Shown: piece by piece, positions 3,001 through 28,474 of the stretch
How the letters are laid out: every line of letters begins with the position of its first letter
Position numbering within the stretch: position 1 is the first letter of the stretch
Source of the DNA: a virus
Reading direction: 5' to 3' (one strand)
IMG/VR virus record: IMGVR_UViG_3300021956_000013
Coordinates: 1,236-65,235 of that record
Length of the DNA stretch: 64,000 nt
Translations under genes and position numbers: made by a program
Notes under the pieces: generated by a model
The model's input: the letters and a program-made list of their open reading frames with translations, nothing else
Told to the model about the DNA's origin: nothing
Databases searched by the model: none

Positions 3001-3332
3001 CCAAAACAATCGGATAATGAATAATATAATTTTTCTTTTTCGTCTGGTGCAGCAAAAATTGTTGGAGTAGTTGAACTATCTAAAATTCCTCTAGAGAACA
3101 CAACATTAGAATCAGTATATCCATACCAAGTTGGAGTAGTTGTTGACGATGTTTCATTTGCATATCCAGAAGATGCTGTATATGCTGTTCCAGATGTTGG
3201 TCTATTTTTATAATTACCAATTGCTAAAATATTTTCACTGACATTAAGATTCCATTCAGCAATAACCATTGACTCTATTTCAACTGTTGATGATTCCTCA
3301 ATATGATTTTTAAGTGCTGTATTTTGAAACAT
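1..3332 (-). CDS. Large minor tail/virion structural protein (partial, runs off left edge)
   Basis: ATG at 3332 (MFQNTALKNHIEESSTVEIES...) 1 nt after the stop of the upstream gene; frame appears to continue to the window edge; absent from ORF track because no stop in window; position after tape measure and Dit-like gene. Confidence 0.7.
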   Translation of the reverse strand, partial: MFQNTALKNHIEESSTVEIESMVIAEWNLNVSENILAIGNYKNRPTSGTAYTASSGYANETSSTTTPTWYGYTDSNVVFSRGILDSSTTPTIFAAPDEKEKLYYSLSDCFGKFRPRSGINKLRYLQTNSINFVNKDMNSRPRYYISSKDDKFKYWTSYRKDETNVERGIGKNISTGTTYFVDDASPFVVYETPVPANRIVLKMQTHVGSIDKGPFLDTNGSPIYDTFYENPATVTLSNQKTPVVWKIQYLNSSNAWIDIKSFDGTETRKTGKRIIGSDGYLELAYGLVIPDTVTSFKHIDEFISTSSLPLSPNLGDAYLITDNTTIGIYYVWNGSSWTQFTPSYAWQVNEESLTTTTPFVTELDSPKFYGTATSATDANFREFQYIKGLRVVVSTINGFNSTLDLLELSPRLVANISDKVKDYSITKLASDIGNTGIPVGQLLAAKGTLSIFDYDQSFNPNNIPVYDSLTNSISGSIIANLNSKNIQIKFYELIKNVPYNSSLYNYIIPIKTMYSDGFPKLNKTERLVSMDLRDLYFYFESLLAPPIMLRDVSLSYALSILFDSIGFSNFVFNRLVNDNEPIIKYFYIPLDTTIGEVLNDLAQSTQTAMYFDEYNNFVCMSKNRIMPTADEYTALTGASEDITLYGSIDYTKSDISNNHPTSTKLANIISLESEDDVVYNSGKVVYDDKYIQKSAITTQEMSVYDDTRSYKYKPVTLWESSGTDNLTSINGEKMENQSFVLAALPLAQDLLSTYQPYADQPNTANAVIKNNTIDFGTEIMFINKYNGYLYANGEVIKYDAIEYSITGYADNVWITSSTDYSKYYAALPFGGSMKKTGKIRIYTKPQYNLNGYISGIVENGRAQFGTEAVDHVAIPTKDNTDFLKTSNQKVFSMQSKWLFNDSYKTTTVSLKNCSGASGQKNITTDSTTGLNVGYTVKTTSNTVLGKITKITNDTTFVIDTNLSTTLSTVKLNAIDRTLEILTQDRNSVRISDGSAGTDFITEQKALYETVIKDFFNNRTGSNSQGTLQSSSLNITGPSLLSNSTNYISYTYKNLDANLLMANRFGTRLRIVGNIPTISKDTENSIQQLAYGANYIDTLSTTENGSYKITG

Positions 3333-3333: not shown

Positions 3334-4002
3334 CTATACCTCTTCCAAAGTAACAGAGATATTCCATAAATCTAAATTATTTCCACCACGTTTTTGAATA
3401 GAGTAATCAAAACTAGAGATATACATCTGAATAGCCTGATTGTATTCTGCAAGTTGAGCATATTCATCTGAACCAGTAAAATTGGTATGTTTATCGTATG
3501 CTAGATATACCCAAAAAGTTCCAGTATGTTTGTCATACCATTCTAGCAATTCATTTCCTCCTGCACCACCATCAACTGTGTATTGGTCTCCTGTGGTTGT
3601 ATTAGTTAATGGTACTAATCCAGGAACCCCATTAGTAGTATTAAATAGTGGGTCATTTGCAAAAGACCTAGAAGGAAGCATTTGCCAAGATGTAGAGATA
3701 GTTAGTTTATCAGCAATATGATAGGAACGCATACGACCATTAATCATACGTTCACGTTTTTCAATACGAGTAGTCTTAAACTCGATTGGTGACCTGTTAT
3801 GGTCAGATAGAATTAAAAAATTATTGTCAGTGTTTAATACTCCACCTGTGGCAGAGCCAACTTCAGTACCATATGGCACATAGATGGTCTTTCCAGTAGA
3901 AGTGGTTTGTGTTGCTGGCTCACTATCAGCCCAAAGCATTGCTTGTGGTCTGGCATACTTTTTTCTACCATATATGTAGTTTGCACTTGCTGGAGTAGTC
4001 AT
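3334..4002 (-). CDS. Minor tail protein (distal-tail-like)
   Basis: 222 aa directly downstream of tape measure; ends WNISVTLEEV, a typical distal-tail-type C-terminus. Confidence 0.6.
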   Translation of the reverse strand: MTTPASANYIYGRKKYARPQAMLWADSEPATQTTSTGKTIYVPYGTEVGSATGGVLNTDNNFLILSDHNRSPIEFKTTRIEKRERMINGRMRSYHIADKLTISTSWQMLPSRSFANDPLFNTTNGVPGLVPLTNTTTGDQYTVDGGAGGNELLEWYDKHTGTFWVYLAYDKHTNFTGSDEYAQLAEYNQAIQMYISSFDYSIQKRGGNNLDLWNISVTLEEV

Positions 4003-7000
4003 TAAATCGTATTCCCTCTAATTCTTTGGTTATCAAGTCTTCTAATCTGTCCGATAACTGCATCGGCAATATCGTTTTGGTTAGACATTGAACTTACGTT
4101 CAAGTTGATATTATAATTATACACGCAATCGCCCATTGATGTTTCACCTTGGTTCATGGCATTAAGGCTATTTAGTCCAATCCTATCTACCGCTGATTTC
4201 TGGAATACATACTCTCCTTGGTGTAGATTAGCCAAGCCACCATCGCCAAACTTAGGCATCATTCCTACATAGCCACCAGTCTTAAATCTAGGAATAGCCA
4301 TTCCTCCATTGGCAAAATGGAACATTCCACCTGTCTGTTTAAATTCATTTTCTAGGTTTTCATAAATTATTTTCAAAAAGTTTGGGTCATTTCCAAATGT
4401 TCCAAAATGACTAAATTTAGGTGTTGGACTTGGAATAGTTTGTTCCATCCATTTACCGAATTGTGAAAGCATTAATGGATTATCTCCAATTTTTTCTTTT
4501 ACAAATTGACCAACGTAGTCTGTTTGTGATAGAACCTTCAATCTATTCATAAACTTTGAAGGGTCTACGGACATAAAGCCAGACTGCAATTGGTCAAAAA
4601 GTTTTTTATCTATTTGGTCATCGGAGAAAACTTCCCTTATGTTATAGCGTAATGCATTTAGCAATGTATCGGTTGCTCTTCTTGCAAGTGATAATCCACC
4701 AGTTGCATTTTCTAGGCTTGGCTGCATTTGCTGCAATCTTGTATTTCCAAAATCTAATGCATGAAATTTTCCAGTTGTTGCATCCATCAAAATATTTCCA
4801 GTATGAACATCAAGATTTCCAACAACTGAATTTAATAGTGCTGAACTAGATGCAAATTCTTTGACATTTTCTATTAATTGTTGTATTTTTTCATTTGGAG
4901 ACATTCCAGGTTTTGTTAACCATGCTTGTATGTTATTATTTCTAATTTGATTCGAATTTGGAATCTTTGGACTAGCAACAAGCAAAGAATCTCGATTACC
5001 CTCAATATGTTTTAAAATATTTGAAGCAGTTCCTGTAAATTCATTTTTAAGAAAATTGCCACTAGTGATTAGGTCATATGGAGCAACGCTTGCACCTAAT
5101 CTATTACCAATAAATGATGTCATTGGTTCTAAGAAAGATTTTTCTTGTTGTGCATAATGTTTTAGATATGTTTCAACATTATTAAGTGTATTTTTCATCC
5201 AAATACCCGACTCTATGCCACCTGAACCTAAAGCAGAATCTTTATATGGTGCAAAAATAGATGCAGTCTGAGATTTCTTTTTTGCTGCTGCTGCTTCTGC
5301 ATTAGATGCTTTTGCACCCAAACGTCCTCTATTATCAAATTTACCCTTTGTAAAGCCCCATCCCTTTTTATCTCCCAACATCCAATTTGTAAATGCATCA
5401 TCTGTTCCTTTATAACCAAGGTATCCCAATTTTCTTAATTGTTGAATCAGAGGGCTATTGAAATGAGAATCTTGCAATAGGTCTGTGGCTTTTGTTCCTT
5501 CTGGGAATCTCCAACCATTTTTTGCTGCAACTTTTAAAACAGTTTTTTCATCAGCATATCCTTTTGACAAAAGAGTGTCAAGTATTACTTTTGGTGTATT
5601 TTTAATTCCATAAACAAAATCTCCAAAATTATGGAAAATGTCTGATTGAGTATTTGTTTTTGCAAAATATGTTCCTGGTCCTGCAAGTCTTCCATTTACT
5701 ACTTCTACATCTTCTGGATGTTCGACACCCAATCCAGCCTTCTCGCTTCTTGTTTTACCAAATTTATTTAAAACTAGTGCTTCTAAGTTTTTAGGAAGCA
5801 TCTTTCCCATAACTGCCTGTAATCCCTTAATTCCTAAATACTTATTTGGACTAGTTGTATAATACTTTGTCAGCCAATCTTTCGGATGAGTATAACTCTT
5901 TTTTGTAGCATTTATTGTATTCTTTATTGCATTAAATCCTTGTCCAATGCTGCTTCCTGCAGTCTTGATGCCCTTTCCAATTGCACCAATTGCTTTTGGA
6001 ATCCACATTGCACCGAATCCAAATGCGGTATTTAGAAGACCTCCCCCAATATCACCTTTACCAAATGATGTTCCAGCATCGCCAAATGCTAGTCCAGAAC
6101 CAATACCTGGAGTAAAGTATCCAATATTCTTTCCAGTTTCTACAAGTTCTCTGCTTCCTGGTTGTGACATAGCCCAATATTGTTTTCTAGTCTGATAATC
6201 ATTAAACTTTTTGTAGTCTCCTTGATTCCAAGGTGCAGATGGGTCTGTTAAACTCCAGTTCTTAGGCTTTCCACCATCTTTATATCCTACTAAACCACCA
6301 TTGGCTTTACCAAACATTTTTTTATAATAGTCATAATTCTGATTACCAGATTCTGACCATGCCCAAGCATCTGTTCCACCATGAACATGTGCTTGTCTTA
6401 TTTGTCTATTTCTAAAAACAGACCAGTTAGAAAGTTTTCTCTTTTTTAAAGCCATATCATTCAAAACACCAGGAATCTTTTCATATCCCATCATTGGTGC
6501 AACATCTATTCCACGCAAATTCCATAAATAATCTAAATTGTTAAAATCTCCAAGAATAGAAGAAATAGTGTTTTTTCTATTTCCAAACATGTCATCTTTA
6601 TACCATGTAAAGTAATTACCATTTGGAGACATAATCTTTCTACCATTAGGTCCAGTTGTTAATCTTCCACCTTTAAAGGAATTAACTCTATAGTTTTTAA
6701 AGTCAGAAAGTGTTGGGTATCTATTAAAATACTTTTGACTACTAGGGTCTCCCCTTCTCCATTCTGGATTCCAGAAATTCATCATTGTGTCTTCTGAAGG
6801 CATAGCAGGTGGTCTATAAGTATAAGCCATCATTGCTGCTACAGAACGAGCATACTGACTCCAAAGAGGACCCTCTGCTTTTTGTGTAGGATTAGTTCTA
6901 TTTAATCTTTGTCTTGCAGAATCAATTGCTTTTTGTAGCATTGATTTTTTGTTTTCAACATTACCTGGGTCATCACTAGTATCATTAATTCTTGGTCCAC

Positions 7001-10000
7001 GAGTAACTGGTCCTCCGTCAGAGAACTTCATTCTATCTGCTTGGTTTAGTCTATCAAGTGTACTGACACCAATAGTCTTTACAGCATTTGCTCTAATAAC
7101 ATATTCTCCATTAGAAAGCATTGCTGGAATATCATCACTTGTTCCAGTACCTGGACCTCTAATATGACCACCTGTAGCCATTGCTACATCTCTAGGACCT
7201 CCACCACCATCACTATTATTAGGAGCAGGTGTCTGTTTTGGAGTATTTGCTGCAGCAGGTGTTTTTTGTAAAGCATTTAAAGTTTTTTGTTTTTCAATCT
7301 GTGCGTCTAACTGCTCACCAATCTTAATTTCACGGTCTAGTTGTGTTTTCTTGTGTCGTGTAATTATGGCTGTTGCATCAGCAATTCTTTCTTCTAGTTC
7401 TGCTCTAGTTACTGTCTTACCACCAATTTTTACTGTAAGAGCATTAATTTCAGCCTGTCTAGCATTTTCTAAAGATTTCTTTGTAGCCTCTATCGCTGCC
7501 TGAGCATTATTTTGTTTCATTTGATATGCTGCTCTTGTTGCTGCAGAAATATCTCCCTTAGCCAAAGCATCTGCCAAGGTTAGTTTATCTTGCTCTTGTC
7601 TATTAACTTCATTATTTAATGATTGAATTTCGTCAAGAGCCTTGATTCTTTGTTCATATGTTTTGTTAATCTTATCTTCATCAATTTTAATTACTTCTAA
7701 TCCAGATTGATACAAACTAATATGTTCTTGAATTTTCTCATCTGCTGATAGACCTAGCCATCTAGTTGCAATTTGTGCAAAACCATTCGGGTCCATTGAA
7801 GCCATTACTTTTGGAAGGGTCTTTAAGAAACTTGCCTTAATCTTTCCAGTAGTCTTATCAACAATCTTATCTATTTGGTCTTGTGGGGCATCGATAATTG
7901 CTTTAATTAGTTCTGGTCCTGCACCTGCTGAAGCAAGTTGCATCATAAGACCATTGGCACCAGTTATTTTAAACTTATCAATTGCTGCTTTAGATGCATC
8001 AAATCCTGTTGTAAGTGCTTGCTTAAAATCAAAAATATCTCTCTTTGTTTTTACAATAGCATCTAAGAATGATGATTCTGGAGTTCCTCCATTTCCACCA
8101 TTACCTCCTGCAGGATTTATAGAACTCATCACCTTGGCTGCCTCAGTTGCCTGACGAGCAAGCCATCTAACATATGCAACAATATCGTTTGGTTTTATAT
8201 TTTTTCCTTCTCCATTTTTCCAACTTGTATATTGGTCATAGAACTTAGGGTCACCAATCATGTTATAGTATGTATCAAATGTTTGAGTATAAACAATCTT
8301 ATTATCTTTATTTAATGACTTAATATATTGAGCATCTGCAGTCATCTGAGATAATTCTTGAGCACCATAAATTTTAGCAATAACAGGCAATGTAATTTCT
8401 TTAGAATTTCTTAGTGCATTTATGTGATTTTCAAAAGCAGTAAGTTTACCTAAGTTAATGTTTTTACCAAAGAAATTTTCAATATTTTCTGTGGCACCTG
8501 GACCACCAACTCCACCACCTCTTCTTACATCCATCATTGCATTAAGTCTTGTTTGTGCTTCTAGTGGATTCTTTGCTAAAGCAATATTTTTAGTAAATTG
8601 ATTTGCAGATGTTTTATTCATTTCTGATGCTAACATAGCCATATCAGAACCAGCAGTGCCTCCTAGATTTCGAATTGTTGTTCCAAGTCTAGCAACCATT
8701 GTTGAATCACCCTGATATTTATTGAGATAAGTTTGAGCAGCGTTTAAGTCTAATGACTTATTTGCAACTGATGCTTCTAATACCAGTTTATTTATATTGC
8801 TTGTATTTTTTAATCCATCAATCAAATCTTTTACTTGTGTTGCCTGTTTCTCCTGAGTAGTTCCTTTAAATGCTGCATCAATTGCCGCTTTCTGTGCATC
8901 CATAACAGAACCACTATTTGGACCAGCAGAATTATATAGAGATATTAAAGAATCATATGCGTCTATACTTGATTTAGTTAAAAGATTCAATCCAGCCTTA
9001 TACTTTTTATTCAAAAAGTATATTCTGTTTGTATCATTATTTTTTATGGCTTCATCCATTGCTGTCTGATAATCTATATATAATCCATCCATTTGCATTT
9101 GAACATTTTCTAGTTGACTCTTAATTGTTCCAACATATGTTCCAGCATTTTGTGCAATATCTACAATATTTTTTTGAATATTTAGCCATCTTCTACCAGT
9201 CATTGGAATGTTTGTATTGTATTTTCCATTAGCAGTTTTATCAAAATTATAGTTTGATTCATTTGTTGTAACTGATTCTTGACCAGTCTGAATAATCTGT
9301 AATCTAGCATTAATTAACAGTGGGTCTTTAGAAACATCTTTTCCATCTGGACCAAAAACAGTTAGAAGTCTTGCACTAACATCCATTGACAAATTGTAAT
9401 TTTTAAGTTGTCTTCCAACACTATCTGCAATACTTAGTGCTTGTCCTTCTGTAAAGATTCCATTAACTACCGCTGCTTGAAGTTGTGCTGCAAGTTGTGT
9501 ATTTGCAACCTTTTGACCACTATCAACTATATTGCTTTGAACACCTTCTAGTAATTTCTTTCCCTCATCACTTTCTAAGAAACTTTGTCCATAAGTTGTT
9601 TTTCCAATTTTAGTATTAAATAGAGATAGTTGATTACCTCTACGAACATTCATTATTTCGGTAGATGTTGCTTTTTTAGCATATGATGCAAGGTTCTCCA
9701 TTGCCTTACTGCCAAGACCAGTCTTTTCTGTTAATTCTAGTTGTTTTTTAATTTGTTCATCGTAAGCATTTTTAATTGCCCAAGCAGCAAGTGCTAAAGC
9801 ACCCAATGCAGCAATGACTCCAGTAACTGGACCAGTAATCATAGACATCATCATCATAGGCATCATAAGTTGCTGAGAAATTTCCCCAATTTGTCCGCCA
9901 GCCATAGAACCCATCATTGTTGGCATCATTGCAGCCATTCCTATTTTTTGAAATTTTCCAGAAGATTGATTTTGACTTGCTTTTGCTCTTGCATCTTTTA

Positions 10001-13000
10001 ATGCTGTTTTATTTGCTAATTTTTGTGCTGCCTTTGCTTGTGCGGCTGCTTCACGTTCTGCAAGAATAGTTGCTCTTCTACCAACATATCCACCAGTACC
10101 GCCAGACATAAGCATTGCATTTTGTTGTTCCATTGCTGCAAGTTCTGCTGCTTGACCTTCTCGATATACCGCTAAAACTTCAGCATTTTCCGTTCTCGCT
10201 GCTGCAACTCTTGCTTCTGCGTGAGCAGTACCTTCTACCTGTCCGCTTTCAGCGGCTATGGCTTGCATAGACATGCTTCTGGCTCTGGCTGCTTCTGCTT
10301 CAGTAACATCAAATTCAGCGTTTGTGGTTCTTCTGGCAGTATTATATGCTACAGCATCTTGTTCACCATCTGGACCAGACAAAACATGCGGACTATTTCT
10401 ATTTCTACTTTCTACATATGGGTCATTTTGTGGATTATCTGTGATGGATTTTTTACCTTTTTCATATGACCTTCCATCAACAATTCCTTGTTGCTCTAAT
10501 TGTTGTGCAGTTATTGGAGCAACATCTCTTCCTGCCAAGCCGCCAGGAAGATATCTATACCATCTATTTCCACCAGTTCTATATTGTTTTCCAGATGGAC
10601 CAAAGAAGCGTTTCTTTGTTGACATTCTAGTTGGGTCTGCACCACTTGGAACCTGCTTTGCTTCAATTCCAGCAGCACTTAACATACCTTCATTAATATT
10701 CATTCTTGTTTCATATAGTCCATTTGCTGCGGCTTCTAAACCCATTCTTAATTTAGATTGTGCTGGCAAAGTTTTAACTGCTTCTTGATGAATTAGTTCA
10801 AAATCTGTATCGGTAATCGTTGCAGAACGATTCATATCAATCATTCTTTGAACACCAGATTGTAGTGCTTGGTCGTATCTAGTTAATTCTTCTGTTACCT
10901 CTTGTTGTTTTAGTCCAGCCATTTTTAAACTTTGTTCCCATTTTGCTAATCCTTGTTGTTTAAAGTCTGATAAGAATGCTGTTGCAGGAACTGCCCCACC
11001 ATTTCTCATTCCAACGTTTAATCCCTTTGATTGGGTAAAACCAAGACCAGAATATGTGTGAATTTGAGCATCTCTACCAAACATTTGCATATAATCATTA
11101 AACATGATTTTTCTTGCCTGACTTAGTTTAACCAAACCTTGTTTTTCTAATTCTATAAGACCTTCATAGAATGAGCCAATTCCCATTGTTTTTCTAGATG
11201 TAATGTGTGCAAATTCTGTTCCACCACTAAATCCAGGAACATTTCCAGATACTAATTGCTTGACTAATCCTGGATAACGTGATACTGATGAAGCAGGGAT
11301 AATTGCTTCACCATTAGATACCCTTGCCAAAATAGAATCAGAGGTTCCAGAGCCTGGACCAGAAATCAAACCACCAGATGCATATGCTCTTGGGGCTGCT
11401 CCCTTTGGAATAGCAATTCCTCTATAAACTTCTTGTGCAGTAATAGCCTTTTGATATTCTGCAACAAGTCTAGAAATTGCTGCTGCTTCAGATGTGAATG
11501 TTTGTGTAAGTTTTCCATGAACTTGGTCAAGTGATGCTGCAACAGATGCTGCCTCAATTTGCTCTGAGGTCATATACTTGGTAGATGTTGCTAAATCTTT
11601 ACTACCTTTGCCAAGATTATTAAAGAATGATTTAAAGTTTGCAAATAGTTTAATTATGTTTGCAACACCGTTAGCAACTAGACCAACAACCATTAGAACA
11701 ACTGGACCAATACCTGCAACCAATCCAGTTAGACCAGTTATAAAACCTTTTGTTCCATCATCCAGTCCATCAAATCTCTTAAGGATATCACTAAAGAAAT
11801 TAAGGATTGGTGTTGCAGCCTTTAAGAATTGTTCTCCAATTGGCATCATTGCTGCTTGGAAATCCTTCATTGCTTTTTCAAATTTAAATGTTGGAGATTC
11901 TGATATTCTCGCCATTTCTCGTTGTGATACGATTGCAAGTTCTTCTGCACTTGCCTTTGTTAATTCTAGTGTTCTTGCTGCCTGACTACCCTGGTCTGTA
12001 ACGTTTTTGAACAATGTTGATAGACGAGCAAACTGGAACTTACCAAATAGTTGCTCAATTGCTTTTGCACGATTTAATGGGTCTAATTGATTTAATGCTG
12101 TAGCAAAATCAACTACTGTCTTCTTAAGGTTTCCCTTGTCTCCTTCAACAATTCCCTTGATGTTAATACCAAATCCAGCAAGCATTTTACTTGCAGTATT
12201 AGTTGGATTAATTAAAGATGCAAGACCAGACTTAAGTGCGTTAGCACCTTCAGATGCGTTAATGCCACCTTCCTTCATTGCTGTTAGGAAGAATGCTAGG
12301 TCCTCTACGTTACCACCAAGTTGTTGAACAACTGGTGCTGCTTTAGGAATTGCAGTAGTTAAATCATCGATAGAAAGTACTGTTTGGTTTTCTACTGCGT
12401 TTAGGAAGTCAATTTTTTGTGCTAACTGCTCTGCAGATAATCCAAAAGCATTAGTTAAACTAATGGTTGTTTCTAGACTCTTCTGTTGGTCTACCCCACC
12501 AAGAACAGCAAGTTTTGTAGCACTTGCAACTTGTGCCAACAAATCTTTACCCATTTTACCTGTTGCAGCGGCAGTAGCAGCCATATCCATAGTATCTTTA
12601 ATTGCAATACCATATTGTGTATAACTTTCAGCAAGTCTTCTAACTTCTCCAACCATTTTGTCTGTATCAGACTTCATGGTATTCATATCACCATAAACAC
12701 GTTTGAACTTTACTACAGCCTTTTCCATTTCATTAAATGATTTAACTGCTACAGAACCAAACATCATAAGTGGAACTGTAAAACCAACCATAAGTTGGCG
12801 ACCAGCCCATTGAGTATTCTTACCAAAGTTTAGTAGGTTTGTAGAACCTTGTTTAAGTAATTGATTTAATAACTGTTGTTTTTGAGCAGCAATTGCTGTT
12901 TTTGTACCAAGATTTTCCATATCCAATGCAAGTGGTCTAACCTTGATTGCTTGCATAGCACCATTGGCATCACGACCCATCTTGATATATTGTGTTTGTA

Positions 13001-13370
13001 GGTCTTTGACACGTTCTCTGGCTACCTTGCCAATAGTCTCAAATTCAGATTTAAATAATTTACCAAATGTTTTAGATGCTCCACCAGCATATCTAAAATA
13101 CTCACCCATTGTGAGTTTGTTCTTTTCAAGTGCCTGTGTAAAATATTCAGTACTTGTTTTTACGGATGTCATCTGGGCTTGGAATTTGCCAGTTGCATTT
13201 ATTCCGTTTACTAGGCTTTGCCTTAGTTGTGCTGCTTGAGCAGCGGCTTGGGCACCGCCCTTAGCCATTTGTAGATGAAAGGCTGATATTTGACCCTGAA
13301 GTAATTTGATTTGCTCTAAAGCATTAGAGGTATCAACATTTACTTTTATATTGGATTGAATATCAGCCAT
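4002..13370 (-). CDS. Tape measure protein with C-terminal cargo domains
   Basis: 3122 aa, Ala/Lys-rich helical; TP901-type core (AVENQTVLSIDDLTTAIPKAAPVVQQLGG...GINASEGANALKS); follows tail chaperones. Confidence 0.9.
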   Translation of the reverse strand: MADIQSNIKVNVDTSNALEQIKLLQGQISAFHLQMAKGGAQAAAQAAQLRQSLVNGINATGKFQAQMTSVKTSTEYFTQALEKNKLTMGEYFRYAGGASKTFGKLFKSEFETIGKVARERVKDLQTQYIKMGRDANGAMQAIKVRPLALDMENLGTKTAIAAQKQQLLNQLLKQGSTNLLNFGKNTQWAGRQLMVGFTVPLMMFGSVAVKSFNEMEKAVVKFKRVYGDMNTMKSDTDKMVGEVRRLAESYTQYGIAIKDTMDMAATAAATGKMGKDLLAQVASATKLAVLGGVDQQKSLETTISLTNAFGLSAEQLAQKIDFLNAVENQTVLSIDDLTTAIPKAAPVVQQLGGNVEDLAFFLTAMKEGGINASEGANALKSGLASLINPTNTASKMLAGFGINIKGIVEGDKGNLKKTVVDFATALNQLDPLNRAKAIEQLFGKFQFARLSTLFKNVTDQGSQAARTLELTKASAEELAIVSQREMARISESPTFKFEKAMKDFQAAMMPIGEQFLKAATPILNFFSDILKRFDGLDDGTKGFITGLTGLVAGIGPVVLMVVGLVANGVANIIKLFANFKSFFNNLGKGSKDLATSTKYMTSEQIEAASVAASLDQVHGKLTQTFTSEAAAISRLVAEYQKAITAQEVYRGIAIPKGAAPRAYASGGLISGPGSGTSDSILARVSNGEAIIPASSVSRYPGLVKQLVSGNVPGFSGGTEFAHITSRKTMGIGSFYEGLIELEKQGLVKLSQARKIMFNDYMQMFGRDAQIHTYSGLGFTQSKGLNVGMRNGGAVPATAFLSDFKQQGLAKWEQSLKMAGLKQQEVTEELTRYDQALQSGVQRMIDMNRSATITDTDFELIHQEAVKTLPAQSKLRMGLEAAANGLYETRMNINEGMLSAAGIEAKQVPSGADPTRMSTKKRFFGPSGKQYRTGGNRWYRYLPGGLAGRDVAPITAQQLEQQGIVDGRSYEKGKKSITDNPQNDPYVESRNRNSPHVLSGPDGEQDAVAYNTARRTTNAEFDVTEAEAARARSMSMQAIAAESGQVEGTAHAEARVAAARTENAEVLAVYREGQAAELAAMEQQNAMLMSGGTGGYVGRRATILAEREAAAQAKAAQKLANKTALKDARAKASQNQSSGKFQKIGMAAMMPTMMGSMAGGQIGEISQQLMMPMMMMSMITGPVTGVIAALGALALAAWAIKNAYDEQIKKQLELTEKTGLGSKAMENLASYAKKATSTEIMNVRRGNQLSLFNTKIGKTTYGQSFLESDEGKKLLEGVQSNIVDSGQKVANTQLAAQLQAAVVNGIFTEGQALSIADSVGRQLKNYNLSMDVSARLLTVFGPDGKDVSKDPLLINARLQIIQTGQESVTTNESNYNFDKTANGKYNTNIPMTGRRWLNIQKNIVDIAQNAGTYVGTIKSQLENVQMQMDGLYIDYQTAMDEAIKNNDTNRIYFLNKKYKAGLNLLTKSSIDAYDSLISLYNSAGPNSGSVMDAQKAAIDAAFKGTTQEKQATQVKDLIDGLKNTSNINKLVLEASVANKSLDLNAAQTYLNKYQGDSTMVARLGTTIRNLGGTAGSDMAMLASEMNKTSANQFTKNIALAKNPLEAQTRLNAMMDVRRGGGVGGPGATENIENFFGKNINLGKLTAFENHINALRNSKEITLPVIAKIYGAQELSQMTADAQYIKSLNKDNKIVYTQTFDTYYNMIGDPKFYDQYTSWKNGEGKNIKPNDIVAYVRWLARQATEAAKVMSSINPAGGNGGNGGTPESSFLDAIVKTKRDIFDFKQALTTGFDASKAAIDKFKITGANGLMMQLASAGAGPELIKAIIDAPQDQIDKIVDKTTGKIKASFLKTLPKVMASMDPNGFAQIATRWLGLSADEKIQEHISLYQSGLEVIKIDEDKINKTYEQRIKALDEIQSLNNEVNRQEQDKLTLADALAKGDISAATRAAYQMKQNNAQAAIEATKKSLENARQAEINALTVKIGGKTVTRAELEERIADATAIITRHKKTQLDREIKIGEQLDAQIEKQKTLNALQKTPAAANTPKQTPAPNNSDGGGGPRDVAMATGGHIRGPGTGTSDDIPAMLSNGEYVIRANAVKTIGVSTLDRLNQADRMKFSDGGPVTRGPRINDTSDDPGNVENKKSMLQKAIDSARQRLNRTNPTQKAEGPLWSQYARSVAAMMAYTYRPPAMPSEDTMMNFWNPEWRRGDPSSQKYFNRYPTLSDFKNYRVNSFKGGRLTTGPNGRKIMSPNGNYFTWYKDDMFGNRKNTISSILGDFNNLDYLWNLRGIDVAPMMGYEKIPGVLNDMALKKRKLSNWSVFRNRQIRQAHVHGGTDAWAWSESGNQNYDYYKKMFGKANGGLVGYKDGGKPKNWSLTDPSAPWNQGDYKKFNDYQTRKQYWAMSQPGSRELVETGKNIGYFTPGIGSGLAFGDAGTSFGKGDIGGGLLNTAFGFGAMWIPKAIGAIGKGIKTAGSSIGQGFNAIKNTINATKKSYTHPKDWLTKYYTTSPNKYLGIKGLQAVMGKMLPKNLEALVLNKFGKTRSEKAGLGVEHPEDVEVVNGRLAGPGTYFAKTNTQSDIFHNFGDFVYGIKNTPKVILDTLLSKGYADEKTVLKVAAKNGWRFPEGTKATDLLQDSHFNSPLIQQLRKLGYLGYKGTDDAFTNWMLGDKKGWGFTKGKFDNRGRLGAKASNAEAAAAKKKSQTASIFAPYKDSALGSGGIESGIWMKNTLNNVETYLKHYAQQEKSFLEPMTSFIGNRLGASVAPYDLITSGNFLKNEFTGTASNILKHIEGNRDSLLVASPKIPNSNQIRNNNIQAWLTKPGMSPNEKIQQLIENVKEFASSSALLNSVVGNLDVHTGNILMDATTGKFHALDFGNTRLQQMQPSLENATGGLSLARRATDTLLNALRYNIREVFSDDQIDKKLFDQLQSGFMSVDPSKFMNRLKVLSQTDYVGQFVKEKIGDNPLMLSQFGKWMEQTIPSPTPKFSHFGTFGNDPNFLKIIYENLENEFKQTGGMFHFANGGMAIPRFKTGGYVGMMPKFGDGGLANLHQGEYVFQKSAVDRIGLNSLNAMNQGETSMGDCVYNYNINLNVSSMSNQNDIADAVIGQIRRLDNQRIRGNTI

Positions 13371-13387: not shown

Positions 13388-13711
13388 TTAGGCAGTTAGA
13401 CCGCCCATAAGCGATGTATCGCTTAGTTTAACACCAGATGCCTCTTCAACAATTTGGTAAACTGTTGGTAGGTCAATATTGTCTTCTAGTGTCTTTACAT
13501 CTGTAGCAAGTTGTGGTGCATATTGCTGCATAGCAATCTGTACACACTCCATAAGCAAGTTCATAGACTTGTCATTATCTTCTGCTACTTCTGCGATTTT
13601 CTCAAACTTCTTCATAAATGAGCGAAGTAGAGAAATTTTTAGTGGTCGCACATCAATGGTAGTTCCATCAATAAGTACGATTTGTTTTGGCTCGTTAACT
13701 GTAGTTGCCAT
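13388..13711 (-). CDS. Tail assembly chaperone, short paralog
   Basis: 107 aa immediately upstream of tape measure; homologous to N-terminus of 13752..14477. Confidence 0.7.
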   Translation of the reverse strand: MATTVNEPKQIVLIDGTTIDVRPLKISLLRSFMKKFEKIAEVAEDNDKSMNLLMECVQIAMQQYAPQLATDVKTLEDNIDLPTVYQIVEEASGVKLSDTSLMGGLTA

Positions 13712-13751
13712 AATACCCTCCTATAGGTTGTATTTAATAATTATAGCATAA

Positions 13752-14477
13752 TTAACCATTTACAACTTCATAATCTAGACCCATACCAATTCCAAATCCT
13801 GCTTGTTTTGCTGCTACTCCTTGTAATGCTGTAATGTCATTAGGGTCTCCATTGCCAATACCACTCGTTGCTGCTGCAACTCTAGCCTTCATTGCTTCCC
13901 AAGGGTCTGGCTCATTAGCATTGCTTCCATCCTCTAAGTCAACCCCCTGCATAGCGGCAAAAAATTTCTTTTCCTGATATTCTAATTCTCTTTTTTGTTC
14001 TAAAGTAATCATAAGTTCTGGCATAGATAGCGAAGACTCTAATTGTTGATAGTCTTTCCAAATACCAAGTAAAAATACTTCAGCCTCTAATTTTGCTAAA
14101 TCCAAAGTATCCCAACTAGATGCTTCTTGAACTGCTTGATTTGTAATAGTATTATTTGAAATAGTATCTAACTGCTCTTGCTTTTCATCTTGTCCAATTT
14201 TAATACCTGCAGCAACATCAAGGATTTTATATACTGTTTTTAAATCGAACTTGTCCTCGAAATCATCGGTAGTTTTTATAGAAGGATAATATTGTTGCAT
14301 TGTTATAGTGGCACAAGCAACTAGATAAATGATTGTTTCATCATCATTCTTGGCTGTTTTTACCAGTTCAAATTCATCCATAAACTTTCTTAGATATCTA
14401 ATCTTTAATGGACTTATCTCAATCTCTTCATTATCTATTGTTTTAATAATGGCTGAATCATATATTTTAGTAGGCAT
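13752..14477 (-). CDS. Tail assembly chaperone, long paralog
   Basis: 241 aa between major tail and tape measure; N-half PLKIRYLRKFM...MQQYYP matches the short paralog; extra C-domain. Confidence 0.7.
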   Translation of the reverse strand: MPTKIYDSAIIKTIDNEEIEISPLKIRYLRKFMDEFELVKTAKNDDETIIYLVACATITMQQYYPSIKTTDDFEDKFDLKTVYKILDVAAGIKIGQDEKQEQLDTISNNTITNQAVQEASSWDTLDLAKLEAEVFLLGIWKDYQQLESSLSMPELMITLEQKRELEYQEKKFFAAMQGVDLEDGSNANEPDPWEAMKARVAAATSGIGNGDPNDITALQGVAAKQAGFGIGMGLDYEVVNG

Positions 14478-17053: not shown

Positions 17054-18219
17054 TATAGTAATCCTGGTTTAATGAGTGTTCCCTTATAGTTGCTAAGGAT
17101 TTTATCAACAATCATATTTCCAGTACCCTCCAAAAATTGTGGGGCAAACTTAATATCGAATTGGTCAGTACTATATTCAGTAACAAAACGATTGTATAGG
17201 TCGTTATTTCCGCATTTGATATCTTCAATAAGCATCTTGATAGCAAGTTCTACATCTGGCGGCACAGCCTTAAATCCAGCATCTACAATAAATATATAAT
17301 CAAACCCTCTAGGGAATGCAATTGGATAATATCCATAAAAACCAATATCTCCAACTCCAGAAGGAAGTAGAGCAGGGGTCTGTTCCATGCGGTTATACTC
17401 ACCAAACTCCATACGCATAATTGCTGAGTTATCTAGAGATGGCTTATATTGATAAGCCCAAATTGATTCTACTCCACCACGAGTAGTAATTGCTTCATTG
17501 TTTGTTGCAGCAATTGATGTATTGTCAACTGTAAATGTTGTTGCTGTTGGTGTTCCAGTTATATAAAATGTACCATTAAATTTGGTTGGTGTTACACCAG
17601 AGATTGTTACTGTTTGTCCAGTCTGAAAACCATGCGTAATAGTTGTGGTCAGGGTTAGGGTTCCGTTAGATACTCCAACATTTTGAATTGAAATACCGAT
17701 AGGGGTATTTTCTGCATCATAGACTAGAACGTTGTTTTCGTATACTTTTAGTACACGGTTTACTGGATGCCATACAGGAAAATAGTCATTACCTTCTCCT
17801 GTACGCTGGATGATAAGTTTGTGGTTATAGAATGCACCACCAGTTCCTGAACCTTCTTGTAGGTAGGTATCAATAATAGAACGAGCAATGATTTCATATT
17901 CTTGATAAGCAAAAATATCTGCTGTTGTTGTAGCCAGTAGGTTTGGGTCTACATATGGACGATAAATTGTTAGATTAGATTCTACAACAATTTCACCATA
18001 AATATCTGTTTCATAAATCTTAACAGCAAAGTCACGGTCATATTGTGCTTTTGCTCTTGGAATAATGTATGTAATTTGCTTGTTTGAATCTGATGTTAAA
18101 GAAATTCTTTCAATTGAGTGGTCCACCATATCCTCAACTTCAAAAATGTATGGTGCGTTAGCACTAGGGACATCCCACTTAGTTGAAATTGGATACGGTG
18201 GAACTCTCAATACTTCCAT
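17053..18219 (-). CDS. Head-tail adaptor with inserted beta-rich domain
   Basis: GFKAVPPDVELAIKMLIEDIKCG adaptor-type motif; insert THGFQTGQTVTISGVTPTKFNGTFYIT. Confidence 0.65.
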   Translation of the reverse strand: MEVLRVPPYPISTKWDVPSANAPYIFEVEDMVDHSIERISLTSDSNKQITYIIPRAKAQYDRDFAVKIYETDIYGEIVVESNLTIYRPYVDPNLLATTTADIFAYQEYEIIARSIIDTYLQEGSGTGGAFYNHKLIIQRTGEGNDYFPVWHPVNRVLKVYENNVLVYDAENTPIGISIQNVGVSNGTLTLTTTITHGFQTGQTVTISGVTPTKFNGTFYITGTPTATTFTVDNTSIAATNNEAITTRGGVESIWAYQYKPSLDNSAIMRMEFGEYNRMEQTPALLPSGVGDIGFYGYYPIAFPRGFDYIFIVDAGFKAVPPDVELAIKMLIEDIKCGNNDLYNRFVTEYSTDQFDIKFAPQFLEGTGNMIVDKILSNYKGTLIKPGLL

Positions 18220-18600
18220 TTAGGCAAATGCCTCCGCTACTTCGTCTGGTGTTGCTAGACGAATGCCACGCTGTGCCAACCAGAAATCAGCATACTTTTT
18301 TGGAACAATATTGTATCCAACATTAATCTTTCCAAATCCATCAGCATATAAATTTCTTTGTGAGAATAATGCAACCTTTGATGGTGCAACTTCTTCTACA
18401 GATGGTGCCTTCTCTACCTTTGGCTTGTCAGCCTTTGTAGTGGTTGAACCCATTACGCCATTTTCATTGAATCCCAATGTAGGAACGTCTTTTGTTGGTT
18501 CTGGTGTTACGATAACCTTATCTTCAACTACTTCTGCTACTGTTTCTACAATTGTTTCTTCAGCGACAGGAGTTGATTCGGTCTTTTTGTTTTCAGCCAT
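18220..18600 (-). CDS. Hypothetical virion-associated protein
   Basis: 126 aa after major capsid, own promoter and RBS. Confidence 0.6.
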   Translation of the reverse strand: MAENKKTESTPVAEETIVETVAEVVEDKVIVTPEPTKDVPTLGFNENGVMGSTTTKADKPKVEKAPSVEEVAPSKVALFSQRNLYADGFGKINVGYNIVPKKYADFWLAQRGIRLATPDEVAEAFA

Positions 18601-18650
18601 GATTAAATCCTCCTTAGATTTATTTTAATTATACCAGATAAATGTAGAAA

Positions 18651-18678
18651 GGGGGTAGAGAAATTAATCCCTACCCCC
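18651..18678 (-). terminator. Hairpin after major capsid gene
   Basis: ggggtag...ctacccc inverted repeat. Confidence 0.6.
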
Positions 18679-18703
18679 ATTCAAAGGGTGACACTAAAAC
18701 AGA

Positions 18704-19864
18704 TTAGTCTGTTGTTGTGTCTGCGAATGCAACTGCATCTAGTTCTTCCCAGGCAATACCGAAACGAACGAAGACAGTGTATTCAATTGTGTCCTTCTTT
18801 GGAACGTAGAAACGGTTCACAGTGATATCTCTCTGGAAGCCCCAAATACGGTTCTGTGGGAACGTTAGGTCAACGAATCCTGCAGGGTAATAAGGAACTT
18901 CAAGAACAGGAACACCTAGAACACGAGTCTGACGTGCACCACCGAAAGTCTGGTTTGCACCACCAATGAACTCTCCACGAGTACCCTCGGTAGAACCGAT
19001 GGTCGAGTAGACAGTAGCATTGTTCTTAACGATGTTAGCAAATGTGTCTGTACCAGCATAGAACTTTAGTCCATTTGTGATGGCACGGTATCTGCGAGGC
19101 ATAGCCAAGATAAGTGCTTGTAGTCTTTCAGTTGTCCAATCAGTGAACGCTGCGTTAGACCCAACTAGAGTTGAGTTGATAACTTCGTGTGCACTTCCAA
19201 GGTTGTTACCAGTTGTGTTTGGATTAGTCTTTTCCAAGTTAATGAATCCATTCATAATGCTTAGGAATGAACCTGTTGAACCATCACCGTTAATAGCAAG
19301 GTCCTCGATGTCGTTACCGAAAGCATTAGTCATTAGACGAACTAGGTGGTCCTCCAAAGCAGCACCCTCGATGTTATCTTCGAGTGACTCTGCAGAAACT
19401 TCCCAGTCTAGACGAATCTTCTTAGTGGTCAATTCAACCTTTGAGAATGTAGCACCAGTGTTGGTATAAGTTGAAACACCCTGGCTTGCAGCACGAATAA
19501 CACGGTCTCCCACGTTAATCTTCTCAAGTTCCATTGTGTTTGCTCTCATTGTTACTCTGCGACCGTCCTGTGCAAGTGTGGTTGCGTCCCAAACATAATC
19601 GATAAATCGTTTTGCCTGTTCAGGGCGTAGGATACCAGTACCTGGATAAGTCGGACTTGCAGTAGCAGATGGGTTTACACCATTTGCACCTGTTGTTACA
19701 CCAAAGTTAGCGGTTGGGCTGTTACCCATGTAAGTACCGTGCTCTGAAAAAGCACCTGTACCACTTGTTACGCTTGCTGATGTACCGAAAGCACCTTCAG
19801 CGTTAGGATATCCAGAAACTGGACTCGTACCTGAAGGCATATTTTTGATAATTTCTTCTGACAT
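18704..19864 (-). CDS. Major capsid protein (HK97 fold)
   Basis: GILRPEQAKRFIDY, FSKVELTTKKIRLDWEVSAESLEDNIEG; start re-called at MSEEII (19864) with GGAGG RBS. Confidence 0.9.
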   Translation of the reverse strand: MSEEIIKNMPSGTSPVSGYPNAEGAFGTSASVTSGTGAFSEHGTYMGNSPTANFGVTTGANGVNPSATASPTYPGTGILRPEQAKRFIDYVWDATTLAQDGRRVTMRANTMELEKINVGDRVIRAASQGVSTYTNTGATFSKVELTTKKIRLDWEVSAESLEDNIEGAALEDHLVRLMTNAFGNDIEDLAINGDGSTGSFLSIMNGFINLEKTNPNTTGNNLGSAHEVINSTLVGSNAAFTDWTTERLQALILAMPRRYRAITNGLKFYAGTDTFANIVKNNATVYSTIGSTEGTRGEFIGGANQTFGGARQTRVLGVPVLEVPYYPAGFVDLTFPQNRIWGFQRDITVNRFYVPKKDTIEYTVFVRFGIAWEELDAVAFADTTTD

Positions 19865-19887
19865 TTTATTTTTCACCTCCTAGTGAA

Positions 19888-21138
19888 TTATTTTAGTAAA
19901 TCGGATGTTGTGAGGAAACTTCCGCCCCATACTGATTTTTCCACCAGTACTGGTTCCTGAATGACCTCACCGAGGTCACCAGACTTACGGAAAGCGGTGT
20001 CTGCTTCTACAGCATCGATACGCTTTCCAAGATTGTTAAAGTCTGACTCTGCATCTGTTACTTTTGCAGTAACAAATCCAAGAGACTTCTTTAATTCAGC
20101 AACCTCATTCAATAGTGATGCATTTGCATCTGCTAATGACTTTACAATTGCTGAGATATCGCTAAAGGCTGTTGTAACTGTTGAGCCTAGTTCTGAAACT
20201 GCCTTAGCAATTACTTCCTCTGAACCTGGAACAACGTCTTCTACAACTTCTTCTACATGTGCTGGCTCGGCTACTGGAGCCTCTTCAACAACTTCTTCTG
20301 TAGCAGGAGCGTCAACTACAACTTCTGCCTCTGGAGCGACATCTACGACTTCATCATTTACGATTTCATCTGACATGTTATCATTCTCCTTTTTAATAGT
20401 CTTAGAAGTATTAATGCCTTTAGCACTATCTACTAAGAACTTTATCATGTCGAGTTTGTCAGCATCTGACTTCTCAACAAAACCTATATTTTGCATCTGT
20501 GTTCCATTGACTGGACTTACTGCAGAATCTTCTTCTGAGATTGTTACTAGTCCTGATTCTTTGTCCCAGAACACATTTTCTAGAACTGTTTCGGTACCCT
20601 CACCAGTAATGGTGTCAATGCCATCTACCTTTTCGACAGAAAGTATATTTGCAAACTGATTTGCAGGACTATCAACAAGGGATAACTCAACCAAGTCGTA
20701 ATCCTTAATAATTCTAATAGCGGAATCGCTCTTCTCATCATAGCCATCATCCCACTTGTTCATTTTACCACCAATAGAAAATCCAGTAAGTGTACCATCT
20801 AGAACTTTTTGCCATGTGTCTTCAGCACCCTTTGAAACATAAGCAGATACATAAACACCTTGATAAAATTTCTTTGTTTCTGGGTCAAAGTATTTGTCTT
20901 CTTTAAATGCAACCATTTTGCCTACTGCCTTTGGTTGATGCATCTCACGAATGTTACCACGGAATTTTGAGAAGGCTGATAGAGATGCTTCTGGAGTAAC
21001 GATATCGTTTTGCTTGTCAATGTTATCAAGCGTTGCAAACCCAGATACAATTCTACGTTCTGTGTCTACCTTTGTGAGTGGCATAGAGATACGGACATTA
21101 TTTCCGTCAATGTCAAAATGTGCTTTTTGAATACTCAT
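19888..21138 (-). CDS. Prohead protease fused to acidic scaffold
   Basis: RIVSGFATLDNID...IREMH...GFSIGG...ELSLVDSPAN (HK97-type protease) plus E/V/A-rich and coiled C-terminus. Confidence 0.85.
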   Translation of the reverse strand: MSIQKAHFDIDGNNVRISMPLTKVDTERRIVSGFATLDNIDKQNDIVTPEASLSAFSKFRGNIREMHQPKAVGKMVAFKEDKYFDPETKKFYQGVYVSAYVSKGAEDTWQKVLDGTLTGFSIGGKMNKWDDGYDEKSDSAIRIIKDYDLVELSLVDSPANQFANILSVEKVDGIDTITGEGTETVLENVFWDKESGLVTISEEDSAVSPVNGTQMQNIGFVEKSDADKLDMIKFLVDSAKGINTSKTIKKENDNMSDEIVNDEVVDVAPEAEVVVDAPATEEVVEEAPVAEPAHVEEVVEDVVPGSEEVIAKAVSELGSTVTTAFSDISAIVKSLADANASLLNEVAELKKSLGFVTAKVTDAESDFNNLGKRIDAVEADTAFRKSGDLGEVIQEPVLVEKSVWGGSFLTTSDLLK

Positions 21139-21197: not shown

Positions 21198-22796
21198 TTA
21201 GGAAGAGCGTCTCCCTTCGCCTTTAGGATTTCTACCTGCGGTGGTTGCAGTATTATCTGCTTGAGCCTGTTGACGTTCTGCATCACGAGTTCTATTACCA
21301 GCATTATTTGCAGCAGCGTCAGTTGCTTGACGAGCAGTAGGCTGAATCATAGAATCGCTTTCTTCACGTTCTGGCAAGTTAAGTAATTCACGAGCCTCAT
21401 TAGGAACCATAATCTGGTTCTTAACATAGTTAGTAAGAATCTGTGACTGAGCCAATTCATCAGTAAGAGTAAGTTCGTTAAACTTAAATTCTAGAATATC
21501 TGTCTTTTCACGAATAATCTTGTTAAGAATCTTTTCAAGATTACGTTGTGCAGGTCTAGCAACCTGTTCTTTAAATGTACGGTCTTGTGCTAGTGAGTCT
21601 GCAATTGATGAAGAACTACTACCGCCTAATTTTGACAATGGAACTTGATGAGCAACTAGGATATCGTCACGGTTCTGCTCACGATACTTTGTGAAAGAAC
21701 CCTCCTGAACACCAGCCTCAATAGGCTCCATTTTAAATTCGACCTTATTATTTTCGGTATCTCCTGGAAGTGGAATGTAAAGTGTACGGTGTGATTGACC
21801 TTTTAGACCAGTCTGTAGGAAACGGAATAACTTGTCTTCTGCTTCTTGTGTAAGTTGAGCACCCTTTAGAGTAACAATGTAACGAGGAACAGCCTTATTA
21901 TTGAAATAATCTATGTTGTATTGTGTGGCTAGAGCATCTCCAAGCAATGCTGGCATAGCAGCAATAACATCTGGAACACCATAGAAAGTGTTTAGTGGAG
22001 AATATTCCTTGATATGAATAATCTCATTTGGACGTTGGTCATCAGTAATATAGTTAACATTCTTTGCACCAAAGTTACGGAAATAAACAACTTTGTTAGC
22101 AATAATTTGAACATATCCGTCACGGAGTCTGCGTACACGCATCGTTGCTGCAGGAATATGACCAATATAGCCAATCTCTCCTGTAATTGTTCTACCAACT
22201 TCAATGTATCCGTTACCCATTGTGTGAACATCTGTAAATACCTTTTCAAGAACAGATGAGAATGATTCATCTTGATTTAGACTTTCTAGCCAATCCTTGA
22301 GTTGAATCTTAAGTCTTTCAATACGTTTGCGAGCACGAGCCATTTGGTCTGCTGTCGCTGCCTCTAATTTAAGGCTAGTCTTGTCAGAAACGATAAAGTC
22401 GTAGCCAAGACCAACGGTATTTTCAACCTTAGCATCGATAGCGGCGTGGTTAGCAAATGATGTATCATAGTAACTTGCTAGTTCGTATAGGTTGTATGGT
22501 GGCGTAATAACATCAAATAATGCATATGCATTACGGAATACCACACCAGGATTAATGGCATTTGAACGTGCTTCCCCAATACCCATTTGAATTGCACCAG
22601 CAGATTCTAAGTATGCATCGTCTCCAAGAGCCTTCGACATTCTTGCACTTCTACGCTTAAAATTAGTTTGCATACCACCAAATGATTTAATGTCGTCCCA
22701 CGACTTAATAAAAGGGTCTAAGTCTGCAAACTCATTTTTAACTACTTGTGCCTCATCTAGACGAGCAGGGGTATTAGCATATTCATAATAACTCAC
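21198..22796 (-). CDS. Portal protein
   Basis: GNGYIEVGR, HIPAATMRVR, YGVPD, FFNKAVP-like motif, HQVP; upstream of protease. Confidence 0.9.
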   Translation of the reverse strand: MSYYEYANTPARLDEAQVVKNEFADLDPFIKSWDDIKSFGGMQTNFKRRSARMSKALGDDAYLESAGAIQMGIGEARSNAINPGVVFRNAYALFDVITPPYNLYELASYYDTSFANHAAIDAKVENTVGLGYDFIVSDKTSLKLEAATADQMARARKRIERLKIQLKDWLESLNQDESFSSVLEKVFTDVHTMGNGYIEVGRTITGEIGYIGHIPAATMRVRRLRDGYVQIIANKVVYFRNFGAKNVNYITDDQRPNEIIHIKEYSPLNTFYGVPDVIAAMPALLGDALATQYNIDYFNNKAVPRYIVTLKGAQLTQEAEDKLFRFLQTGLKGQSHRTLYIPLPGDTENNKVEFKMEPIEAGVQEGSFTKYREQNRDDILVAHQVPLSKLGGSSSSSIADSLAQDRTFKEQVARPAQRNLEKILNKIIREKTDILEFKFNELTLTDELAQSQILTNYVKNQIMVPNEARELLNLPEREESDSMIQPTARQATDAAANNAGNRTRDAERQQAQADNTATTAGRNPKGEGRRSS

Positions 22797-28389: not shown

Positions 28390-28474
28390 AGTGTTTCCAC
28401 CTTTCAATAACTGTGATGTATAAAGTATAGCACAGTTTTAAAAAATAGCAAACACTATATCGAAATTTAATAAA

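Follow-up and report, generated by a model that had tools for sequence, protein, structure and literature searches.

Can the tape measure protein (TMP) of a tailed phage carry an enzyme into the cell that it infects? The question is raised by a stretch of viral DNA of 64,000 nucleotides, here referred to as the window, which covers positions 1,236 to 65,235 of the IMG/VR record IMGVR_UViG_3300021956_000013, a virus genome of 70,937 bp. On its minus strand the window encodes, by translation, a giant TMP of 3122 amino acids (aa), P0001 (window 4002-13370), and near the C-terminus of this protein an earlier inspection of the letters, the sequence-only reading, had noticed a set of kinase-like motifs. 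It had proposed that the virion delivers a kinase at the moment of infection, before any phage gene is expressed. We followed this proposal from the motifs to the predicted fold, to the relatives of the protein and to what the domain might do.

The open reading frame (ORF) itself is identified as a TMP from its profile matches and its gene position. PhageMin_Tail (PF10145) matches aa 252-443 with 90.7 bits, against a Pfam cut-off of 33.2, and the best TMP family in PHROG is phrog_10030 (E 2.5e-96). The genes follow the order of a siphovirus-type module, namely portal, protease, major capsid, Ig-bearing major tail, two phrog_10504 ORFs, the TMP, a 222-aa ORF and a minor tail protein. Moreover, P0001 has two hydrophobic segments, aa 541-579 and aa 1172-1203, on the Kyte-Doolittle scale.

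The 32-residue string on which the proposal was built, NSVVGNLDVHTGNILMDATTGKFHALDFGNTR, corresponds to aa 2847-2878 (window 4737-4832). LGSGGIESG, DVHTGN and DFG were all found again by translation exactly where the sequence-only reading had put them, with DVHTGN at aa 2854-2859 (window 4794-4811) within the catalytic loop. The location of the domain was borne out as well, and its true start is aa 2706 (window 5255), slightly upstream of the position of about 2720 that had been given. The G-x-x-D-R-H-x-x-N loop of the PI3_PI4_kinase type, followed by DFG, is present as GNLDVHTGN and then DFG, the Arg being replaced by V, T or I, and the loop GNLDVHTGNILMD aligns to the GDRHxxNIL loop of Tel1/PI3K. 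When the P0001 protein was shuffled, D.H..N followed 8-22 residues on by D[FYL]G appeared in only 10 of 20000 shuffles; since the motifs are also conserved in the homologues, the pair is unlikely to have arisen by chance.

The predicted structure gives the clearest answer to what the domain is. An AF2 model of aa 2700-3010 was made from an alignment of seven rows (A4), and the geometry of the active site was judged by the placement of secondary structure. In this model (pLDDT 71, pTM 0.72), the N-lobe begins with three strands, of which the first and second (strands 7-11 and 21-28) are joined by the Gly-rich loop and the third contains Lys2737; Glu2748 lies in the next helix, two strands and a long helix lead into GNLDVHTGN, and the catalytic loop gives way to a pair of short strands, then to DFG and a disordered loop, and finally to the helical C-lobe. 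Only kinases were among the matches listed by Foldseek against the PDB. VIA-align compared the model with 48,161 representative chains, and the best 50 matches listed were all kinases, with Z of 9.1-12.2 over model residues 2-311. Actin-fragmin kinase stood at the top (1cja; Z 12.2, 242 residues aligned, 11% identity), and among the others were PI4KIIalpha (4pla; Z 12.1), CotH (5jda; Z 11.7), CtkA (3akj; Z 11.3), PI4KIIIbeta (8q6f; Z 11.1), HipA (4pu3; Z 11.0), MavQ (7m7a; Z 10.9) and Vps34 (Z 9.9), while canonical Ser/Thr kinases reached a Z of about 9.5. The Swiss-Prot part of the AFDB likewise returned kinases throughout, with actin-fragmin kinases first. All ESM Atlas matches were kinases too, the best shape match being a HipA_2/PI3_PI4 cluster (TM 0.62/0.71) and further HipA_2 and HipA_C clusters coming next; the HipA_2 clusters gave TM values of 0.62/0.71 and 0.61/0.68 over 238-242 residues. 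As a result, the predicted fold is that of a kinase, as the sequence-only reading had expected. The likeness that it had seen to PI3/PI4-kinases and HipA also stood, the nearest folds being HipA_2, PI3/PI4-kinase and actin-fragmin kinase, whereas the likeness to APH held at the superfamily level only. Modelled fold and catalytic residues together strongly support placing the domain in the protein-kinase-like superfamily.

The sequence comparisons are fainter and point the same way. PI3_PI4_kinase (PF00454) aligns with aa 2814-2876 of P0001 at 21.5-24 bits (20.7-24.0 bits over all scans). The match extends over positions 109-170 of the profile (108-170 across the members) and so takes in both the catalytic loop and DFG. 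ABC1 matches the domain weakly, below its Pfam cut-off. When the seven aligned sequences were scanned one by one against Pfam, PI3_PI4_kinase was matched by six of them (best E 3.2e-5), ABC1 by three and HipA_C by two (best E 0.041, which is non-significant); HipA_2 was not among the Pfam matches of these members. A search of the kinase domain with phmmer against the PDB sequences gave no match, and a family profile against the same sequences ranked Tel1 (E 0.0076), PI3Kgamma, Mec1, mTOR and PI4KB highest, all on the catalytic loop and DFG. The named neighbours in protein-language-model space were clusters of LepB_N, PI3_PI4_kinase, HipA_2 (28 hits) and actin-fragmin kinase. These signals, each of them weak and none above a curated threshold, all agree on a kinase.

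How widely is this domain distributed? An exhaustive HMMER (phmmer) search of 1.84 billion representative proteins found it in only two others, the giant TMPs P0005 (3511 aa) and P0006 (2872 aa). P0002 (3350 aa; 55% identity to P0001 from aa 2706 to the end) came from a word-indexed search, and IMG/VR contributed three further TMPs of the P0006 lineage. By word-indexed profile search there were no stand-alone forms of 96-377 aa, and among longer forms just one appeared, a fragment that belongs to the P0006 lineage. When contigs of metagenomes and genomes were scanned, the one addition to the family was the contig of P0002 itself. These scans also brought up two cellular APH-family genes, which match the catalytic loop alone and were excluded as family members. 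With aa 2600-3122 as query, tblastn found no match at 1e-5 among 50,697 GenBank phages, and at E 10 it reported only the catalytic loop of a haloarchaeal virus gp16 and non-significant TMP matches. On this sampling, the domain appears to be a very divergent kinase subfamily found only within a small clade of related giant TMPs.

Across the four TMP lineages, which share 23-56% identity in the domain, ten residues are invariant: G2718, K2737, E2748, N2852, D2854, H2856, N2859, D2863, D2873 and G2875. The catalytic residues are thus kept in all homologues that carry the domain. Between the members L001 and L002, dN/dS is 0.14 in the kinase domain and 0.20 for the whole portion of the ORF that was compared, which indicates that the domain is under purifying selection.

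The surroundings of the domain are mosaic. Six giant TMPs share an N-terminus of 720 aa (38-66% identity, with 60-66% between P0001 and the five others) and a conserved C-terminal tail, and their distal thirds differ in the content and order of modules. The kinase starts at aa 2706 of 3122 in P0001 and at aa 2929 of 3350, 2223 of 3511 and 2009 of 2872 in the other three proteins that have it, and it is absent from the related P0003 and P0004; swapping among TMP homologues, which the sequence-only reading had suggested looking for, is therefore seen both in the position of the domain and in its absence from two relatives. A TMP end motif, PAxLSxGE[YAF]V, occurs three times in P0001, at aa 687, 2088 and 3052 (window ~11310, ~7107 and ~4215), and the variable cargo of each of the six related TMPs is flanked by the penultimate copy on one side and by the last copy on the other. 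Gly-rich ANGG/TGGY motifs recur at the borders of the modules and may be recombination junctions. Judged from these alignments, the kinase domain is one of several exchangeable cargo modules of the TMP.

A second cargo module, here called module X, lies directly upstream of the kinase in P0001 and after it in P0005. Its conserved motifs are H...GPGxYFA...GY.G..A[FY][TS].W, and its language-model neighbours are ART-PolyVal clusters and AcrIF11-type ADP-ribosyltransferases (ARTs), with a score of 0.91. Module X has no Pfam match even at E 10 and its AF2 model is unusable (pLDDT 47), so that its possible identity as an ART is only a lead. The Gly-rich hydrophobic stretch before the cargo modules stays under the Kyte-Doolittle threshold and forms no clear transmembrane helix. 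The features of P0001 and its neighbours are collected in Table 1.

Table 1. Features of the TMP P0001 and of the adjoining tail genes, with their positions in the window
Feature	Residues (aa)	Window	Strand	Remarks
Protein-kinase-like domain (HipA_2 / PI3-PI4-kinase / actin-fragmin-kinase-like), ~285 aa	2706-2990	4401..5255	-	By homology and predicted fold
Gly-rich loop LGSGGIESG	2714-2722	5205..5231	-	G2718 invariant; at the kinase P-loop position in the model
Lys2737 (YLK), candidate ATP-binding lysine of strand beta3	2737	5160..5162	-	Invariant in four TMP lineages; model strand 33-40
Glu2748, candidate alphaC glutamate	2748	5127..5129	-	Invariant; model helix 43-59
Catalytic loop GNLDVHTGNILMD	2851-2863	4782..4820	-	N2852, D2854, H2856, N2859 and D2863 invariant
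DFG, metal-binding Asp motif	2873-2875	4746..4754	-	DYG, DLG or DFG in homologues
Cargo module X, directly upstream of the kinase	2524-2687	5310..5801	-	Common to P0003, P0004 and P0005 at 31-35% identity
Gly-rich hydrophobic stretch before the cargo modules	~2430-2480	5931..6083	-	Partly kept in P0002
Penultimate end-motif copy, ...GTSDDIPAMLSNGEYVI...	2062-2112	7035..7187	-	PHROG TMP C-terminal matches
Last end-motif copy and conserved C-terminal tail	3018-3122	4005..4319	-	36-44% identical to the C-termini of P0004, P0005 and P0006; PHROG TMP matches
Two ORFs 5' of the TMP		13388..14477	-	Both match only phrog_10504 (unknown function)
Tail-tip genes 3' of the TMP: 222-aa ORF and minor tail protein of >1110 aa		3..4002	-	phrog_10359 (minor tail protein), E 5.7e-36

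What the kinase could meet in the cell depends on the host. The phage genome has a WhiB-family gene outside the window (G000:C1:68795-68968, minus strand; 43.6 bits, above the cut-off), and among the control genomes only Corynebacterium gave a WhiB match; the gene therefore indicates an actinobacterial host. The capsid and the TMP are nearest to those of Streptomyces phages, with 41% identity for the capsid. In a monoderm host, which has no periplasm, ATP for a kinase would be found only in the cytoplasm. Actinobacteria also make phosphatidylinositol (PI), which is a major membrane lipid there.

TMPs fill the lumen of the tail, where their C-terminus points to the tip, and at infection they are the first to leave, as in lambda, T5 and SPP1. 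Because the protein would go out before the DNA and with its C-terminal end in front, the cargo region would be threaded through the host wall and membrane. Our preferred reading, to which we give slightly better than an even chance, is that aa 2706-2990 constitute a catalytically competent atypical kinase, an exchangeable cargo of the TMP that is delivered at infection and phosphorylates a host target before phage gene expression. The observed part of this reading comprises the motifs, the fold, the conservation, the purifying selection, the shuffling of modules, the identity of the TMP and the clue to the host. Incorporation of the kinase into the virion, its delivery, refolding and activity, and its substrate are what we infer. 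Delivery at infection is plausible from what is generally known of TMP ejection. The cargo region would be kept in the tail in a non-native state, emerge before the DNA and cross the envelope of the actinobacterial host, wall and membrane, mostly as an unfolded chain. Once at the cytoplasmic membrane or inside it, the kinase would regain its fold and, drawing on host ATP, phosphorylate a host target while all phage genes are still silent. Its target would most likely be a protein, because HipA, CtkA, CotH and actin-fragmin kinase are among the nearest folds and the module next to it resembles an ART that modifies proteins or nucleic acids, and its purpose would be take-over or counter-defence. 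T4 Alt and T7 gp0.7 offer functional analogies. The T7 kinase is cited in PMC5512222. A bolder form of the proposal holds that the TMP, besides being ruler and channel, is a protein-translocation device, that its cargo of ART-like module and kinase is threaded unfolded into the cytoplasm, and that the kinase refolds there and phosphorylates a host component within seconds of adsorption, either PI or a protein of defence or translation; we regard this form as a tentative possibility, more readily doubted than asserted.

Several points weigh against the preferred reading. No sequence match of the kinase domain reaches any curated Pfam cut-off, and the PI3_PI4_kinase score misses its gathering threshold of 27.1 bits. 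Four of the five AF2 models failed to converge (pLDDT 45-54), and one of the seven alignment rows (L004) is only a superfamily-level relative, a small contamination of the AF2 input. The structural neighbours mix protein and lipid kinases, so that no substrate class is singled out. A folded domain of about 33 kDa cannot fit in triplicate in the lumen of the tail tube, and non-native storage and refolding must therefore be assumed. Some TMPs, lambda gpH among them, lose part of their C-terminus as the tail is assembled, which makes retention of the cargo in the virion uncertain. Finally, the phage and its host are both uncultured.

We weighed four other explanations for the domain. The first is that it is a lipid kinase, which would be delivered to the inner leaflet, phosphorylate PI there and thereby alter the membrane round the TMP channel or disturb the envelope. 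PI3_PI4_kinase is the only Pfam family matched consistently, the best structural matches include PI4KIIalpha, PI4KIIIbeta, the Legionella lipid kinase MavQ and Vps34, LepB_N turns up next to the domain in language-model space, and insertion of the TMP into the membrane would set the domain beside lipid in a host which, as an actinobacterium, would by general knowledge make PI. The presence of PI in Actinobacteria makes this a serious rival; we nevertheless think it unlikely, since protein kinases (actin-fragmin kinase, CotH, CtkA and HipA) score equally well or better, the segment after DFG is not basic as it is in the activation loop of PI-kinases, and the PI3_PI4_kinase match, like the others, remains below the cut-off. 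The second is that the kinase acts in the producing cell, either late in infection, before the TMP has left the cytoplasm, or after cleavage of the cargo at tail assembly, and modifies host or tail-assembly proteins there. ATP is certainly present in that cell, C-terminal processing of TMPs is generally known (lambda gpH, T5 pb2), and no globular domain would need to be housed in the tail tube. The end motif and the C-terminal tail, however, stand downstream of the cargo in all six TMPs, and removal of the cargo would therefore need two cuts or lose the conserved end; moreover, MuF head proteins, which are another chassis for virion delivery, also bear a domain of this fold, and the swapping of cargo resembles polymorphic effector systems (PMC5512222; PMC13277306). 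Action in the producing cell is thus improbable to a similar degree.

The remaining two explanations concern the chemistry and the motifs themselves. Many atypical kinase folds have activities other than phosphotransfer, as is generally known, and the domain, very divergent and short of every family cut-off, could be a pseudokinase scaffold or carry out another nucleotide chemistry, AMPylation or glutamylation, as in SelO/SidJ. The invariance of the Lys, the Glu, D-x-H-x-x-N and the Asp of DFG, together with the purifying selection on the domain, makes us consider this very unlikely. As to the motifs being chance matches in a long, low-complexity structural protein, the individual sequence matches do all lie below curated thresholds, but the rarity of the motif pair among the shuffles, its conservation in four lineages and fold searches that return kinases only leave this explanation next to no probability.

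Which known kinases does the domain resemble most? Its best structural match is to HipA_2 (PF20613) and HipA_C (PF07804), with which it has a loop of the G-N-x-D-x-H-x-x-N type in common. Unlike the HipA kinases, the TMP domain has no significant match to the HipA profiles of Pfam and has a DFG-type metal-binding motif; nor is it a toxin-antitoxin gene with a HipB/HTH partner, as it is internal to a TMP whose neighbours are tail genes. PI3/PI4-kinases (PF00454; PI4KIIalpha, MavQ, LepB) form the only Pfam family that nearly all members match, and their structures align with Z of 10.9-12.1, whereas the TMP domain lacks the Arg of DRH, the helical and C2 accessory domains and the basic activation loop. 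Actin-fragmin kinase (1cja), the top match both in VIA-align and in the Swiss-Prot AFDB, is a eukaryotic protein kinase of slime moulds, in contrast to the TMP domain, and the two are only 11% identical.

A close likeness in catalytic loop comes from haloarchaeal viruses (Hafunaviridae, such as HCTV-6 and HSTV-2), whose gp16 is named 'phosphatidylinositol kinase' and has a nearly identical loop (VGNDDRHYGNILMD vs VGNLDVHTGNILMD). With hhalign, gp16 and the TMP domain align over 48 columns (E 8.9e-5, 60% probability), and gp16 is also a structural match in BFVD. In HCTV-6 it is a protein of 490 aa (L009:6311-7783, plus strand), and the same gene occurs in HSTV-2, HRTV-2, HRTV-11 and HCTV-15. 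The gene belongs to the structural module, where the genes for head completion and tail completion flank it, and gp16 may be a virion protein. Unlike the TMP domain, it is stand-alone, has DSG for DFG and belongs to viruses of an archaeal host. A literature search found nothing on the haloarchaeal PI-kinase.

Enzymes within TMPs have precedents. Mycobacteriophages and T5 have peptidoglycan hydrolase or Rpf motifs in their TMPs; these enzymes have the cell wall as their substrate and work without ATP. For a kinase in a TMP, in contrast, ATP is required, which implies access to the cytoplasm. In the Sle1-type TMP-like effectors of actinobacterial contractile injection systems, the functional domains at the C-terminus can be exchanged (Nagakubo et al. 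2026, PMC13277306). Sle1 comes from a contractile injection system and not from a phage; together with the enzymes in TMPs, it is a precedent for a TMP or TMP-like scaffold with a domain that acts on the target cell. In our literature search no kinase turned up that had been described inside a TMP, and the incomplete coverage of the search makes this weak evidence of novelty.

Injected kinases have also been predicted in MuF proteins and in the polyvalent proteins of phages and plasmids; in the polyvalent proteins the C-terminal lobe of the kinase is missing (Iyer et al. 2017, PMC5512222). The concept of polyvalent proteins and MuF toxins is alike in that effector domains are swapped among relatives, are fused to a virion protein and are predicted to enter with the DNA. 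The chassis differs, being a TMP here, a head protein for MuF and other proteins for the polyvalent kinases, and the TMP domain, in contrast to the latter, keeps a helical C-lobe in the AF2 model. Polyvalent proteins unite several unrelated effector domains, which differ from relative to relative, in one virion-associated chain; here, the content and order of modules vary among the six TMPs and the second module is tentatively an ART. The same kinase-like fold occurs in phage MuF head-morphogenesis proteins (an ESM Atlas cluster) and, in BFVD, in large actinophage proteins annotated as ADP-ribosyltransferase (Mycobacterium phage Onyinye and Gordonia phages Sixama and GodonK); the pairing of ART and kinase may recur on different virion chassis.

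The alignment row L004 was considered as a member of the TMP family and rejected. It is a protein of 1195 aa encoded at L008:12520-16107 (plus strand) of IMGVR_UViG_3300036647_000024, with an RNase H-like 3'-5' exonuclease, a staphylococcal-nuclease (SNase) domain and a C-terminal kinase of the ePK/ABC1 type. This is a polyvalent-type protein, with the kinase on yet another chassis. A downstream ORF near it (17407-19899) is large-terminase-like, with intein and LAGLIDADG signatures.

Around the TMP itself, the pair of ORFs at its 5' side is placed where tail assembly chaperones usually sit, and from position alone we take them as candidates for that role. Upstream of the portal gene lies an ORF of 1025 aa (window 23210-26287, minus strand), with a 133-aa ORF (22796-23197) intervening; it has no Pfam or PHROG match and occupies the place expected for the large terminase. 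Adjoining the structural module, at 26350-28407 and 31972-33932 (both minus strand), are genes for a ribonucleotide reductase and for two family-2 glycosyltransferases, one of them with TPR repeats.

Swappable effector domains borne by virions are known; what would be new here is that such a domain, a very divergent kinase of the HipA/PI3-PI4 type, sits in a tape measure protein. The notion of polyvalent or polymorphic effectors thereby reaches from the head (MuF) proteins to the tail. The fate of the TMP after ejection is a long-standing question in siphophage infection, and a kinase in the TMP predicts that part of it enters the host cytoplasm and refolds there; the translocation reading, if true, would directly show part of a siphophage TMP in the cytoplasm. 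If PI is the target, the domain would be the first phosphoinositide kinase from a phage that acts on the membrane of a bacterium. The cargo slot between two copies of the end motif is, moreover, a possible natural design for loading proteins into phage tails.

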